Shown here one piece after another: positions 17,421-23,179 of a DNA stretch of 64,000 nucleotides. Numbering within the stretch: the stretch's first letter is position 1; each line of letters begins with the position of its first letter. A program made the position numbers and the translations under genes. Source of the DNA: a virus; IMG/VR virus record IMGVR_UViG_3300021963_004854, positions 1 to 64,000 of that record, one strand, 5' to 3'. The notes below the pieces were generated by a model. That model made no database searches. It saw only the letters and a list, made by a program, of their open reading frames with translations, and had not been told where the DNA came from.

Positions 17421-18338
17421 ATGTCTTTTAATTCTCTATCGGAACTCCGTAAGAACCGTGGCAACTTCGACTCGCTCATGAAGGAAGTCGAAAAGATTGC
17501 AAATCCCACAAACGAAAAGCGCGGCGATGATGATCGCTTCTGGAAGCCTAGTGTAGACAAGGCTGGCAATGGTCAGGCTGTTCTCCGCTTTCTACCTGCT
17601 CCCGCGGGTGAAGAACTTCCTTGGGTGCGCGTCTTTGACCATGGTTTCCAGGGTCCAACAGGTAAGTGGTATATCGAAAACTCGCTAACTACTATCAACA
17701 AGCCTGACCCCGTGGGTGAATTGAATTCCGAACTTTGGAATTCGGGCATCGAAGCCAACAAGGAAATCGCTCGTAAGCAGAAGCGCCGCCTCTCTTACAT
17801 CTCAAACGTTCTTGTCGTTCGTGACCCAGCAAATCCTGAAAACGAAGGTAAGGTCTTTCTCTACAAGTATGGTAAGAAGATTTTCGACAAAATCAAGGAT
17901 GTGATGCAGCCTACATTCGAAGACGAAAAGCCCGTCAATCCGTTTGACCTTTGGGAGGGTGCTAACTTCAAGCTCCGCATTCGTCAGGTTGAAGGTTATC
18001 GTAACTACGATAAGTCGGAATTTGATGGTCCTGCTGCTCTTGATGAAGATGATGCGAAACTTGAATCTGTCTGGAAGCAGACACATTCTCTTGCCGCATT
18101 CCTTGACCCGTCAAACTTCAAGTCTTATGATGAACTCAAGACTAAGCTGAATGCTGTTCTTGGAAGCGGTGTCCGTGTTCCTAGTGCAGACAAGGTTTCA
18201 CCTCTTGATGCTGAGGACGAACTCTTCGTTGAAACCAAGATGAAGTCGGCTGCTAAGGCTACCGAAGATACTCCACCGTGGAATGAAGATGAAACAGATG
18301 ATAACATGAGTTACTTCGCAAGTCTTGCGGATGACTAA
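17421..18338 (+). CDS. gp32: Single-stranded DNA-binding protein gp32
   Basis: DDRFWKP..DKAGNG.AVLRFLP, WYIENSLTT, YKYGKKIFDKI, NYDKSEF, acidic tail. Confidence 0.96.
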   Translation: MSFNSLSELRKNRGNFDSLMKEVEKIANPTNEKRGDDDRFWKPSVDKAGNGQAVLRFLPAPAGEELPWVRVFDHGFQGPTGKWYIENSLTTINKPDPVGELNSELWNSGIEANKEIARKQKRRLSYISNVLVVRDPANPENEGKVFLYKYGKKIFDKIKDVMQPTFEDEKPVNPFDLWEGANFKLRIRQVEGYRNYDKSEFDGPAALDEDDAKLESVWKQTHSLAAFLDPSNFKSYDELKTKLNAVLGSGVRVPSADKVSPLDAEDELFVETKMKSAAKATEDTPPWNEDETDDNMSYFASLADD

Positions 18339-18343
18339 AAGAG

Positions 18344-18371
18344 AAAGGGGCGCTTTAAGCGCCCCTTTTTT
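18344..18371. terminator. Bidirectional intrinsic terminator
   Basis: AAAGGGGCGC-TTTAA-GCGCCCCTTTTT between convergent genes. Confidence 0.85.
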
Positions 18372-20916
18372 ATGCTGCTGCGGTTCTTCTTCTCTGCCAC
18401 GTTAGCCATGAGTTATCATCCGGTCTAGAATGTGGAGATGTATGTGGTATAGTAGGACCACTTTGCTGCGGCGGTGCCTGAATTACAGTCGGTGGCGGCA
18501 CATTAATTACAGGCTTTTCTGCCGCGCCCTTGGCTGTCGCAACTGCCGCAGTCGATCTTGAAATAATAGCAGAATCTTGATTTTGTCCGCCTTGAACACT
18601 TGCTCGAGGTCTTTGCTGTAGTGTTGCGCCGCCAGATTGTCTAGCACCCTGTGGAGTAGCAATAGCTGCTTTGGGTTTTTCGCCCGCCTTAGCTGGTTCT
18701 GCTTTACCCCAGATAAGATTATCTATCTTGTCGGCACCCCAACTTCCTGCTTTCTCACCGGCATATGCACCAGCAGCGCCGCCTGCCACAAAGCCAACAC
18801 CAGTTCCTACTGGGCCAGCCAGAGAGCCTACCGCCGCACCGCCGGCTTCACCTAATACCTGCCCGCCGTATGTAGCCAACCCTGTGATGCCACCCGCCAA
18901 TAATGCTCGACCTGTGCTACCGGTTCTGGCTTTAGTTTCTTTATATTTTGAATATGCGCCGATTGCAGCAGGTAGAAAAGGAATTGCCTTACCAGCAACT
19001 CTTGCTAGTCCACCAGCTTTTGCTAATACTGGCGCGGCTGCCTTGCCAAATCTTGATGAGCCTATCGCTTCTGCCGTTCCACCGAAGACTTTGCTTGCCT
19101 TACCCTTTACCCAATCAAAACCCTTACCTAGTGCTTCTGCACCCTTAGCACGTTGACCTTGTATCCAGCTGCCCGCTGTCTTTGCAGCACCAAGTGCCGA
19201 AGTACCAAACGATTTTGCCTTTTCTGCGGCGCCGGTTGCCATGCCACTGACGGTAGTTTTAGTGCTTTCCCATGCCCTTGAATACCACGGTTTTGATGCT
19301 GTAGCTTCTACTGCGCCTTTTACTGGAACTAGATTTCTTCCAGTGGGTGCAGTTCTAGATGTTTCCTGTAAACTACGACTTAATGAACCTTCTTGCATTT
19401 CGGCCGCTTTTCTTGCGCGCCAGTTATTTCTACCCTCTTCGGTGGTAATATTTTCGTTTGCTCTACGATTAAGATCTCTTCCACCAACAACAGCTTTAGG
19501 TTCGACTTTAGCTGTAGACGCCGCTTCTGCAATGTTACGATTTCTAATTGCTTCTCGTAGTTCATTGCCCTTCAAGCCAGGTTTGATGCCTCTATATGCA
19601 TCTGCTTCTGCTACAGACCTTCCCTGTAATTTTGGCGATAATTCTACATCGCCAGCTCGGCGAACTAAAACTTTTTCTTGCTGTGCAGTTTTTAGACCTA
19701 ATTCTTCTAATGTTGCCCCGCTTGCTTGCTGTGTCAATTGTGGAACAGCGGTTTGTCTTGCAACTGCGGTTCTAGCATCTGTTAAAGCTGGGACTCGTGT
19801 TGCAGCCGTTTCAGATGCTAGAGCTAAAGCTGGGACAGCCATTGGTACCCTGGTTGCAACCGCGGCGGGTACTCTAGATGCAATTGCCGCCGCCGCAGCC
19901 GTTTTTACAGGACCGCCAACTGGTATCGGTGCCGGAAGAGGTAAGTTCATTCCGCTGCCATTGCATTGACATTCGCAAACACACTTCTTTATTTCTTCTA
20001 ATAATCTTAAAAGTTCAGGCCAATAGTCCTTTACACCCAAAGCACTAGAACTACGAGAGAATGCAGGGTCGGTATCTCTAATACCGGCACGAAGTTCTTC
20101 GGCATCACTCTTAGTTTTGGTATCGGGAGCAATATTAGCAGAAGCTAATTGTGTAGTTTCTTCGCCGCCGCCTTGTGTGACCTTGTCCGTTGTCTGTCCA
20201 GAATTGTCAAGCGTTGATGTTAGATTTTGTTTGGACTCTTCTAAAAATGCGAGTTTTTTATTTTCAGTTTCGGTCTGTTCTCTAACTTCTCGGCGTCTCT
20301 CTTCGTTAGACTTACTAACCCCAGCAAACGCACCACCCATAAAGGTCGAAGAAAACCCGCTTGCAAAACCACTACCTGCATTCTTGAGAATACTTTTACC
20401 TTGCACCCAACCAGTTGCTTTTGTGCCATCTGGAGTTTGTGCTTGTTTGCCAAAAATTCTTTCTTTAACTCTTTGGCCAGTAGTAGGATCGCCATCAATC
20501 CCCATTGCTTTATATTTTTCTTGTAGGGCGATTTCTTTTAGTTTTTCGCCCACTTCCTTAAGTGCATCATTTTTTTGCACTTCGCCTCGAAGAATCATTT
20601 TCTCCGAGTGTTTCATTACTTCATCTAATTTTTTAGCAAACTCTTCTACTGTTTTTCCCTGTAGGTTTGACAGTGCTTTTACCGTGTCAGTAAGAAGATC
20701 CTTATCTTCTTTGACTAGAGTTTCAAGAAGAACCGCATTATTTTCTTTTAGAGACTTTGAAAATGCATTTACGACCTTTAATACGGACTCATCGCGCACA
20801 GAACTCATTGCATCCGACGACACCGATGCAGCAATTCTATCTAGAATTTCATCTCTTTTATTCTGTCTAGATGCATCTTCTGCACCTGGATTGCTGTCAT
20901 TTATTACAGGTAGCAT
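18370..20916 (-). CDS. Tape measure / gp29-like baseplate hub protein
   Basis: 848 aa, Ala/Gly/Lys-rich helical, glycine-zipper region; lies after the gp26/gp51-like genes. Confidence 0.65.
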   Translation of the reverse strand: MLPVINDSNPGAEDASRQNKRDEILDRIAASVSSDAMSSVRDESVLKVVNAFSKSLKENNAVLLETLVKEDKDLLTDTVKALSNLQGKTVEEFAKKLDEVMKHSEKMILRGEVQKNDALKEVGEKLKEIALQEKYKAMGIDGDPTTGQRVKERIFGKQAQTPDGTKATGWVQGKSILKNAGSGFASGFSSTFMGGAFAGVSKSNEERRREVREQTETENKKLAFLEESKQNLTSTLDNSGQTTDKVTQGGGEETTQLASANIAPDTKTKSDAEELRAGIRDTDPAFSRSSSALGVKDYWPELLRLLEEIKKCVCECQCNGSGMNLPLPAPIPVGGPVKTAAAAAIASRVPAAVATRVPMAVPALALASETAATRVPALTDARTAVARQTAVPQLTQQASGATLEELGLKTAQQEKVLVRRAGDVELSPKLQGRSVAEADAYRGIKPGLKGNELREAIRNRNIAEAASTAKVEPKAVVGGRDLNRRANENITTEEGRNNWRARKAAEMQEGSLSRSLQETSRTAPTGRNLVPVKGAVEATASKPWYSRAWESTKTTVSGMATGAAEKAKSFGTSALGAAKTAGSWIQGQRAKGAEALGKGFDWVKGKASKVFGGTAEAIGSSRFGKAAAPVLAKAGGLARVAGKAIPFLPAAIGAYSKYKETKARTGSTGRALLAGGITGLATYGGQVLGEAGGAAVGSLAGPVGTGVGFVAGGAAGAYAGEKAGSWGADKIDNLIWGKAEPAKAGEKPKAAIATPQGARQSGGATLQQRPRASVQGGQNQDSAIISRSTAAVATAKGAAEKPVINVPPPTVIQAPPQQSGPTIPHTSPHSRPDDNSWLTWQRRRTAAA

Positions 20917-21072
20917 TTATTGTCCAGTGTTTAAATCGTTTTCTTGTTTTTTCAAGTGGGTCACTAACATACCTATATAAACTTCCCTTTCCCACGGCAT
21001 CATATTTTCCAATTCGCTCAAACTATATTTATGCTCTTGCATTAGAATAAAGTTTGTTTGATAGAAGTTCAT
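20917..21072 (-). CDS. gp51: gp51-like baseplate hub assembly domain (probably the -1 frame extension of the gp26-like gene)
   Basis: MNFYQTNFILMQEHKYSLSELENMMPWEREVYIGML; not in ORF track; no SD; frame stays open upstream into the gp26 end. Confidence 0.85.
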   Translation of the reverse strand: MNFYQTNFILMQEHKYSLSELENMMPWEREVYIGMLVTHLKKQENDLNTGQ

Positions 21073-21092
21073 CAAATTATCATGGGAAAGGG

Positions 21093-21776
21093 CTATCCGA
21101 AAAAACTTTCTAGCCCGTCCATGAATACAATGTTTTCTTTACTACAATTAGAACAAGTGTAATCTACAGTATGCTCTAGCTTAGGCATAGTTTCAAAGAA
21201 CTTTGCAATTCTTTCGAATTGCTCACTTGTCAGACTATCAATAAACTTTTCAATTTCTTCTTTCGATTCATCTGCGGTGCTGTATACTCGTTGTTCATCA
21301 AAAATCTGGTCAACACAATTCACTACAAGATCGAATACCTTTAGTTCATCGCTTACCGTGTCTTCTGGTGTAGGATATTTCATAACTACACCCACTGTGT
21401 CGGTCAACATAATCTTATTTGTATGCTCTTCGTTTGTCTGCAATTGAATTGCATCTAGATTTAAAGTAAATGGTGTTCTATGACCACATTCGCCGCAAAT
21501 CAAATTGAAATCCGAAGTTCCGCCGATTGATTGTGATCTAATTCGTAAGAAAAGATTCTGTAAATCAAAAATCGGAAGGGTGTGTCCATTAACAGCACCG
21601 TTGCTACATGCAGTAACAATATCCTGCATAGCATTTAGAATTTCTTTTTTATCATCTTGTTCTTGTGCCATCACAAGAATTTTTTCTTCTTTCACTAAGA
21701 AAGGTCTGCACCGTATTTTCTGTTTAGTCGAAAGAACTTCAACTTCAAATGTTGGTGTAGTAATTACAGGAATCAT
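21093..21776 (-). CDS. gp26: gp26-like baseplate hub assembly protein
   Basis: RPFLVKEEKIL, FLRIRSQSIG, two CxxC, FFETMPKL, ends GLESFFG; GGAG RBS before ATG 21776. Confidence 0.88.
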   Translation of the reverse strand: MIPVITTPTFEVEVLSTKQKIRCRPFLVKEEKILVMAQEQDDKKEILNAMQDIVTACSNGAVNGHTLPIFDLQNLFLRIRSQSIGGTSDFNLICGECGHRTPFTLNLDAIQLQTNEEHTNKIMLTDTVGVVMKYPTPEDTVSDELKVFDLVVNCVDQIFDEQRVYSTADESKEEIEKFIDSLTSEQFERIAKFFETMPKLEHTVDYTCSNCSKENIVFMDGLESFFG

Positions 21777-21795
21777 AATAATCTCCAATTAATGT

Positions 21796-22479: not shown

Positions 22480-23054
22480 TAGATTTTACCTCTAGTGTCT
22501 CTGAAAACGGATTCTTTAGTTGCACCAACAAATGCTTCTACTGGTAAGAATACTGCCGCTTTCCAATCCGAAGGATTTATTCTCATAAATTGCGATTTAA
22601 CATGACCTGTGAGATAATGCTTAATGCAAGGCTTTATTTCTGGTGCATTTTGTAAACTAGTTAATAGTTGATATGACAAGCGCATTTTGCTAGTATTTGA
22701 AAGAGTTTTAGAGTCCGCATATTCTAAAAGTTCTCCTAACACTTTAGCTCTAAGCATGTAAGGAAGATAATGCAGATTGATGCCATAGAATCCACCCTTA
22801 GCTGGTCCAAAAGGAAGCACTAAAGGAAATGTATCATAAAACGGAAGTTGGTCTTTCCACTTAGGGTCATAGAAATACAGATACATAGAACCGATTTCAA
22901 AGTTTGATTTCAGTTCACCGATATCAGATTTCATAACCGTATTATTGGAAAGTCTCGCACCCACAAGATTGCGCACATTATTCATGTACCATTGAATGGA
23001 CCTTTGCCCATCGCCAATGTTAGCTCGTAATTTCTGGAATGCGTTATTTGCCAT
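22479..23054 (-). CDS. gp2: DNA end protector protein gp2
   Basis: YDPKWK.LPFYDTFPLV, GINLHYLP, CIKHYL. Confidence 0.88.
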   Translation of the reverse strand: MANNAFQKLRANIGDGQRSIQWYMNNVRNLVGARLSNNTVMKSDIGELKSNFEIGSMYLYFYDPKWKDQLPFYDTFPLVLPFGPAKGGFYGINLHYLPYMLRAKVLGELLEYADSKTLSNTSKMRLSYQLLTSLQNAPEIKPCIKHYLTGHVKSQFMRINPSDWKAAVFLPVEAFVGATKESVFRDTRGKI

Positions 23055-23179
23055 TAACGGCCCTGACCTCTATACTTCTTAAAATTGCGGCGCTTATGCT
23101 TGTTCATCGTGCTTAGTTTGATTCCCTTGCGGCGCGGTGCTGCAAATACTGTTTTTGTATTTCCTGATGCTTTAGCCAT
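23054..23179 (-). CDS. Small very basic late protein (41 aa, not in ORF track)
   Basis: MAKASGNTKTVFAAPRRKGIKLSTMNKHKRRNFKKYRGQGR*; AAGGAG RBS; CATAAATA upstream; TAATG overlap with gp2. Confidence 0.8.
   Translation of the reverse strand: MAKASGNTKTVFAAPRRKGIKLSTMNKHKRRNFKKYRGQGR

Follow-up and report, generated by a model that had tools for sequence, protein, structure and literature searches.

A probable programmed −1 ribosomal frameshift joins gp26-like and gp51-like reading frames in an uncultured T4-like phage

The late tail region of an uncultured T4-like phage contains a gp26-like gene whose 3′ end resembles a programmed −1 frameshift site leading into a short gp51-like open reading frame (ORF). 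The window analysed here is a stretch of 64,000 nucleotides (nt), positions 1 to 64,000 of the IMG/VR virus record IMGVR_UViG_3300021963_004854; the phage genome has 171,566 bases and is rated 100% complete, and the locus lies on the minus strand. The gp26-like ORF starts at ATG 21776, ends at TAG 21095–21093 and is preceded by a GGAG Shine-Dalgarno sequence at 21786–21783. Its product matches the Pfam family PF12322 (T4_baseplate) over profile positions 2–218 of 219 with 215.1 bits and an E-value of 1.2e-63, the cut-off being 24.5 bits, and it matches phrog_150 (E 2e-66) over positions 7–232 of a 282-position profile. PF12322 is found once in the complete 171,566-base genome. The gene ends in AGT TTT TTC GGA TAG, in which T TTT TTC matches X XXY YYZ in zero-frame register. 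Read on from this heptamer, the −1 frame gives FFRIALSHDNLMNFYQ... and remains open to TAA 20919–20917; upstream, it is also open for 43 nt before the gp26 stop. The elements of the junction are as follows.

21776–21093, minus strand: gp26-like gene, zero-frame short form of 227 amino acids (PF12322, phrog_150)
21105–21099, minus strand: slippery heptamer U UUU UUC, Phe225–Phe226 of the zero frame
21098–21093, minus strand: spacer GGAUAG of 6 nt, including the zero-frame stop UAG
21092–21081, minus strand: 5′ arm of the stem, CCCUUUCCCAUG, read as Ala-Leu-Ser-His in the −1 frame
20996–20985, minus strand: 3′ arm of the stem, CGUGGGAAAGGG, coding for Pro-Trp-Glu-Arg-Glu of the extension
21099–20917, minus strand: −1 frame extension, 60 residues after Phe226, giving a predicted long form of 286 amino acids (phrog_634)
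21075–20917, minus strand: 52-codon ‘gp51-like’ ORF, from TTG 21075 or ATG 21072 to TAA 20917

Reading of the minus strand confirms the heptamer and the −1 frame open into the gp51-like ORF that a preliminary description of this DNA had reported, as well as its remark that the gp51-like ATG at 21072 has no purine-rich Shine-Dalgarno sequence upstream. Both parts of a canonical −1 signal are present, namely an X XXY YYZ heptamer in zero-frame register at 21105–21099 and, at the 5–9 nt spacing expected of such signals, a stable downstream structure with covariation, the latter judged among related sequences. We therefore consider it probable, at about 0.85, that a programmed −1 ribosomal frameshift takes place at the end of this single gene of the gp26/gp51 family. 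Sequence comparison shows that the signal is present and conserved and that the predicted trans-frame product is colinear with T4 gp51; actual shifting by ribosomes, and its rate, are inferred. The predicted trans-frame product has 226 + 60 = 286 residues, and its junction would yield the tryptic peptides ENIVFMDGLESFFR and IALSHDNLMNFYQTNFILMQEHK, neither of which can be derived from the zero frame or from a start at ATG 21072.

The extension is similar to the C-terminal part of T4 gp51. It matches phrog_634, ‘baseplate hub assembly catalyst’ (E 7e-21), and also positions 242–280 of phrog_150, a segment complementary to the one covered by the zero frame, which is a first sign that the two parts form one protein in other phages. 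In T4, JD18, CHI14 and Aeromonas 25, gp51 (~250 amino acids) consists of PF12322 and the C-terminal extension in one frame, and gp26 (~205 amino acids) is the PF12322 domain alone; T4 gp26 and T4 gp51 both match the PF12322 profile, the latter with residues 1–201 (E 4e-52). Residues 200–237 of T4 gp51 align with the −1 peptide from its residue 2 (FRIALSHDNLMNFYQTNFILM..., E 2e-7), so that a single-frame T4 protein spans the point at which this phage changes frame. When 31 extensions, including three T-even gp51 C-termini, are aligned from the heptamer, the alignment is nearly gap-free, and the segment RIALSHDNL, which precedes ATG 21072, appears to be coding because it aligns with T4 gp51 and with the extensions of relatives. 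Only the predicted trans-frame product unites PF12322 and the phrog_634 extension in one polypeptide as T4 gp51 does, and because the genome has a single PF12322 copy, a long form of this type is obtainable here only by a change of frame. The preliminary description had set this arrangement beside T4, which encodes 26 and 51 as separate genes; there are indeed two genes in T4, but gp51 is the full long form, PF12322 plus extension, rather than the tail alone, and gp26 corresponds to the short form. A structure model of the extension shows three helices with a predicted local distance difference test (pLDDT) score of 76.

The reading frame and the heptamer are conserved in relatives. The comparison set comprised 50 IMG/VR loci together with GenBank regions of cultured phages. 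In all 53 related loci, which include Prochlorococcus P-HM2, Pelagibacter HTVC008M, Sinorhizobium phiM12 and Aeromonas 65.2, the gp51-like part lies in the −1 frame, which runs open through the gp26 stop, and homologous junctions in variable frames were not found among them. The 32 distinct junctions of this set carry T TTT TTC (28) or T TTT TTT (4), 6–12 nt before the stop. The same frame and heptamer are seen in KVP40, S-CAM1, S-CAM8, Acidovorax ACP17, Stenotrophomonas Moby, Rhizobium N34 (T TTT TTG) and Desulfovibrio 7757, and each of the 41 distinct heptamer-type junctions has T TTT TTC, TTT or TTG in register, with TTG in a single case. The codon that precedes the Phe pair differs (AGT, GAT, AAT, TCT) and is T-ended throughout, and the first Phe codon is always TTT. 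The alignment of gp26/gp51 junctions across T4-like phages, proposed at the outset as a check, thus returns a conserved slippery heptamer in a constant −1 register and supports a programmed −1 frameshift joining the two ORFs. Single-protein scans with KVP40 and Moby gp26 returned matches only to themselves or to near-identical genomes.

The heptamer is kept against codon preference. Elsewhere in gp26, TTT and TTC occur 0 and 12 times in ACP17 (59% GC), 2 and 11 times in phiM12 and 1 and 11 times in N34, and the junctions of these three phages nevertheless read GAT/AAT TTT TTY (TTG in N34). High-GC phages that avoid TTT elsewhere keep TTT TTY at the junction, which argues that the heptamer is not a product of codon bias. 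T-even gp26 retains the Phe-Phe motif in a non-slippery coding, GAG/GAA TTC TTT (T4 gene 26 at L063:3803-4429; L057:523-1152; L055:523-1152), and serves as a natural control showing that the T6 heptamer of the other phages is not forced by the protein sequence. The notion that the conserved Phe-Phe motif alone accounts for the heptamer was rejected on these two grounds, the T-even TTC TTT and the persistence against codon bias.

A T6 run is also a typical site of insertion and deletion errors, and the junction might be an artefact or a product of decay, in which a homopolymer error or a recent mutation split a long gene and left its downstream part dead. This is almost certainly false, as an independent assembly (L005) that is 99% identical shows the same arrangement, as do dozens of finished genomes of cultured phages spread over at least seven families or genera, and the downstream frame is conserved as protein. 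A homopolymer sequencing error in particular was rejected, since dozens of independent genomes share the arrangement.

Downstream of the heptamer, a 12-base-pair (bp) stem formed by CCCUUUCCCAUG and CGUGGGAAAGGG begins after 6 nt. The complementarity of 21092–21081 with 20996–20985 noted in the preliminary description is perfect, and the stem closes the minimum free energy (MFE) fold, which has −36.4 kcal/mol and z −4.8, a value equalled by 0 of 200 shuffles. In an ungapped alignment of 20 relatives (A1), 87.9% of cells in the outer 12-bp stem are paired, compared with 44–67% when one arm is slid by 1–3 columns. Compensatory changes, which had been named as something to look for, occur at two outer-stem pairs, 15–120 and 18–117, each of which switches between C-G and U-A with 7 sequences each, and the covariation score of the stem was reached by 0 of 500 shuffles. 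The two arms lie in codon phase, the third positions of Ala/Thr, Leu, Ser and His facing the third positions of Arg, Glu, Trp and Pro; since third positions pair with third positions, the stem can co-vary with both peptides unchanged. We regard this covariation as good but not conclusive support for a frameshift signal, because relatedness inflates such statistics. The further inner pairings that had been proposed to extend the stem over the gp51-like start, UAAUUUG/CGAAUUG and UGAACU/AGUUUG, did not stand: they are complementary in this phage but lie outside the MFE fold, and with 52.7% of cells paired in the 20 relatives they do no better than the slid controls.

The 120 nt 3′ of the heptamer have a mean folding z of −2.5 over 41 distinct junctions, and in 22 of 41 relatives pairing in the MFE fold begins 6 or 7 nt past the heptamer. 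In other clades the 12-bp stem is replaced by a different strong hairpin at the same 5–7 nt spacing, for example GAUGUUGCAU...AUGCAGCAUC, which has compensatory variants of its own, and KVP40 has its own long-range stem downstream of the heptamer. A search of positions 20500–21500 against Rfam in E-value mode matched no family.

Two side observations concern the surroundings of the heptamer. One clade (L023, L036, L039, L044, L045, L048, L049, L054) carries, in place of the long-range stem, a nearer hairpin of ~14 bp, about 7–70 nt past the heptamer, that pairs Ala-Met-Leu-His codons with Leu-Met-Gln-His-His codons and shows the compensatory variants CAUGAGG/CCCUCAUG and CAUCAGG/CCUUGAUG. On the 5′ side, a Shine-Dalgarno-like GAGGG, GGAGG or GAAGG stands 8–12 nt before the heptamer in 24 of 35 distinct junctions (L001, L002, L021–L060), with a frequency of 10.7% in background windows of the same genes. 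This element recalls the upstream stimulator of dnaX frameshifting and coincides with conserved Glu-Gly codons; it is absent from the phage studied here (GGACGGGC).

The same 286-residue fusion could also arise by transcriptional slippage, in which RNA polymerase adds an extra U on the T6 run and brings both parts into a single frame. The site is homopolymeric and the product identical, so that the comparative protein evidence fits slippage equally. However, the runs on which bacterial transcription is known to slip efficiently usually number 9 or more, longer than the 6–7 T of this site, and position 7 of the heptamer is C rather than T in 28 of the 32 junctions. A strong stem 5–7 nt downstream with compensatory changes is a hallmark of ribosomal frameshifting, and we know of no role for such a stem in polymerase slippage. 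Slippage by the polymerase is accordingly improbable.

Independent translation of the downstream ORF would instead yield two separate proteins, the small gp51-like ORF starting at ATG 21072 or TTG 21075, or being reached by re-initiation 17–20 nt past the gp26 stop. Both start codons exist, so some independent initiation is possible, and many GenBank records annotate the extension as a small ‘gp51’. In the Vibrio phages K362 and YC (Ackermannviridae) and in Pseudomonas Cygsa01, the heptamer is lacking and the extension is a separate small ORF in a TAATG overlap (L066:2100-2346, L069:2211-2429, L070:2121-2405), their zero frames ending in CTT TTC AAG TAA, GCT TTC ATG TAA or ATT TTC ACC TAA; a free small protein thus seems viable in some lineages. 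In the phage studied here, however, the small-ORF start has no Shine-Dalgarno sequence and lies inside the structure closed by the stem. Its position is not conserved, whereas RIALSHDNL upstream of it is, a peptide with homology to internal residues of T4 gp51, and independent initiation leaves unexplained why the heptamer is kept against codon bias. Two separately initiated proteins are therefore very improbable as an account of this locus.

Across relatives, the first ATG of the extension frame falls at codon 4–5, 10–11, 20–21 or 33–35 depending on lineage, and at least 20 codons in for 15 of the 41 junctions. The extension is left unannotated (~160–180 nt) in the GenBank records of Aeromonas 65.2, S-CAM1, S-CAM8 and ACP17 (L004:2209-2371, L059:1214-1397, L060:1214-1393, L061:1814-1966), and no ribosomal-slippage join is given at this site in any GenBank record inspected. 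The earlier proposal that frameshift tails account for the tiny gp51 genes annotated in aquatic T4-like phages is borne out: the conserved peptide starts at the heptamer, 5′ of any start codon. The proposal is not universal, because K362, YC and Cygsa01 carry a separate small ORF. In these phages the extension can apparently also act as a separate, translationally coupled protein, and the heptamer and a TAATG-type overlap occur together in KVP40, Moby and N34. A maximum-likelihood tree of PF12322 places K362, YC and Cygsa01 in one clade nested among frameshift forms (support 99/98). In this unrooted tree, T-even gp26, T-even gp51 and the single-gene forms make up three well-supported groups, a topology that does not itself give the order of events. 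The Straboviridae hold both states, with the frameshift in KVP40 and Aeromonas 65 and the duplication in T-even types; a derived duplication of 26 and 51 in the T-evens is thus the simpler reading.

The junction sits in a late tail module that occupies the minus-strand gene run from 23054 to 18344 within the window. The other elements of this run are as follows.

23054–22479, minus strand: gp2-like DNA end protector gene
22479–21796, minus strand: gp19/gp54-like tube protein gene
20916–18370, minus strand: gene for an 848-amino-acid putative tape-measure protein, so named from its position and weak leads
18368–18344, minus strand: terminator-like hairpin of 11 bp, 7 of them GC, with a T-rich tail, 3′ of the tape-measure-like gene

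The preliminary description had a tape-measure-like gene following immediately. An 848-codon ORF does lie directly downstream, its ATG 20916 abutting the TAA 20919–20917 of the extension; its identity as a tape measure is a tentative assignment drawn from its position, from the syntenic genes in HTVC008M and phiM12, which carry a tape measure annotation, and from weak leads. The protein gave only weak matches, to phrog_1047 (E 3e-8) and, as Atlas leads, to tape-measure clusters (0.77–0.85); BLASTP found no significant similarity to T4 gp29, and a Pfam search gave no family. The hairpin at 18368–18344 would, as a terminator-like element, close the operon after this gene; it faces a convergent plus-strand gp32 gene that ends at 18338. 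At the other end of the run, a 41-codon minus-strand ORF at 23054–23179, 5′ of the gp2-like gene and overlapping it by 1 base, encodes a very basic peptide (MAKASGNTKTVFAAPRRKGIKL...KKYRGQGR).

The short form was modelled with AlphaFold2 (pLDDT 87.5). When its residues 1–94 were compared with 48,161 chains by VIA-align, the top three matches were 3fgx_B (Z 7.4), the HK97 tail assembly chaperone 2ob9_B (Z 6.8; root-mean-square deviation 3.9, 83 aligned) and YqbN 3klu_A (Z 6.5), with the next row at Z 5.4 and Lactococcus p2 ORF12 at Z 3.0. The top matches are specifically tail chaperones, each target being covered nearly whole, which is suggestive of a resemblance between the N-terminal ~90 residues and tail assembly chaperones. 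A Foldseek search of the short-form model against the PDB returned nothing at E ≤ 0.001. Separately, residues 94/97 (LICGEC) and 208/211 (YTCSNC) of the gp26-like protein form two CxxC pairs, and this region of the model gives weak zinc-ribbon matches to ZitP (Z 3.5) and LysW (Z 3.0); a Cys4 metal site is possible.

Several points weigh against a programmed frameshift with a tail-chaperone function. The compared sequences are related, so that the counts of conserved junctions overstate their independence, and relatedness alone may exceed the shuffle control used for stem covariation. Three heptamer-less phages with a TAATG overlap sit inside the frameshift clade. The tape-measure identity of the downstream gene leans on position and weak leads, and the matches to the tail-chaperone fold have Z below 8, a range in which chance arrangements occur.

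In the reading that we favour, a programmed −1 ribosomal frameshift, most ribosomes would read AGU UUU UUC GGA UAG and terminate, giving the 227-residue short form as the counterpart of T4 gp26. A fraction would stall on the 12-bp stem 6 nt downstream and, with tRNA-Phe in both the P and A sites, slip from UUU UUC to U UUU UU and continue with CGG AUA GCC. The slip would add a 60-residue three-helix module and so produce the 286-residue long form, the counterpart of T4 gp51. Both forms may act in the manner of lambda G/GT: the N-terminal domain that they share would hold the tape-measure protein while the hub is assembled, and the extension would dock this complex to a further hub or tube component. 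In T4, gp26 and gp51 are counted among the hub assembly chaperones; gp51 is essential, is needed for hub assembly and is absent from the particle (PMC3004832). A G/GT-like role is the best working model because of the gene position, the hub chaperone class of T4 gp26 and gp51 and the TTTTTTG frameshift of P2. Such a role, and the fixed ratio of short to long chaperone put forward in the preliminary description, may also draw support from the moderate fold match of the N-terminal domain and from T4 genetics (PMC3004832). A wider proposal, to which we give slightly less than even odds, is that the gp26/gp51 family is the T4-type equivalent of lambda G/GT, in which the N-terminal domain would coat the tape measure, the extension would dock the complex to the hub or first tube ring and the frameshift rate would set the ratio, the T-evens having swapped the frameshift for duplication and a few lineages for a coupled small ORF.

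The probable gp26/gp51 frameshift would belong with the known −1 frameshift of tail chaperones, and its occurrence at this gene is apparently unreported. Full-text literature searches found no published report of it, and the Nucleic Acids Research (NAR) 2016 recoding review and the PRFect paper make no mention of baseplate or T4-like cases. If the reading is correct, the conserved tail-chaperone frameshift would extend to the T4-like group, including cyanophages, pelagiphages, rhizobiophages and KVP40-like and Aeromonas 65-like phages, and the T4-like phages would no longer be an apparent exception to it. Genes 26 and 51 of T4 would then be the short and long forms of one chaperone, which would make the function of the essential gp51 testable and give this long-unexplained ‘catalytic’ protein a concrete role. 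Annotation would be corrected in many genomes; in the records inspected the extension appears either as a gap of ~180 nt or as a very small ‘baseplate hub assembly catalyst’ whose start is arbitrary. The family would also form a natural series in which one stoichiometry problem has been solved in three ways, by frameshift, by a coupled small ORF and by gene duplication.

A comparison with T4, lambda and P2 places the junction among known systems. T4 gp26 (208 amino acids) belongs to the same PF12322 family as the short form and has the C-terminal Phe-Phe motif in common with it. T4 gp51 (249 amino acids), like the predicted trans-frame product, consists of the domain and an extension of ~50 residues, colinear across the shift site, and gene 51 heads an operon with the tape measure gp29. 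In contrast to the single gene and frameshift signal described here, however, T4 and the T-evens have two diverged, divergently transcribed genes and no slippery heptamer.

In lambda, the gpG/gpGT pair is made by a −1 shift near the end of the chaperone gene, a feature conserved among tail assembly chaperone genes (Levin 1993; Xu, Hendrix and Duda 2004, 2013 and 2014, as cited in PMC5009743). The likeness to the present locus lies in a −1 shift, predicted here, near the gene end and directly before a tape-measure or tape-measure-like gene, with a short form and one extended at the C-terminus; in both cases the products are expected not to be part of the virion. Unlike lambda G/GT, to which it shows no sequence similarity, the protein described here is more than twice the typical length of a tail chaperone and has an extra Cys4 domain, if the metal site is real, and the gene has a conserved downstream stem. 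The slippery sequence of lambda is G GGA AAG and differs from the T TTT TTC used here.

For P2, E/E+E′ (Christie et al. 2002) is described in PMC3091744 as a −1 shift on TTTTTTG in a gene pair between the tube and tape-measure genes, and the same paper reports that no downstream structure was found in P2-like phages. P2 E is thus unlike the gene described here, being 91 amino acids long, unrelated in sequence and devoid, in that account, of a downstream structure, where the present locus has a conserved stem. P2 is a contractile-tailed phage with a −1 shift on a T6 run, as is predicted for the present locus, and Rhizobium N34 carries exactly T TTT TTG at the homologous gp26 site.

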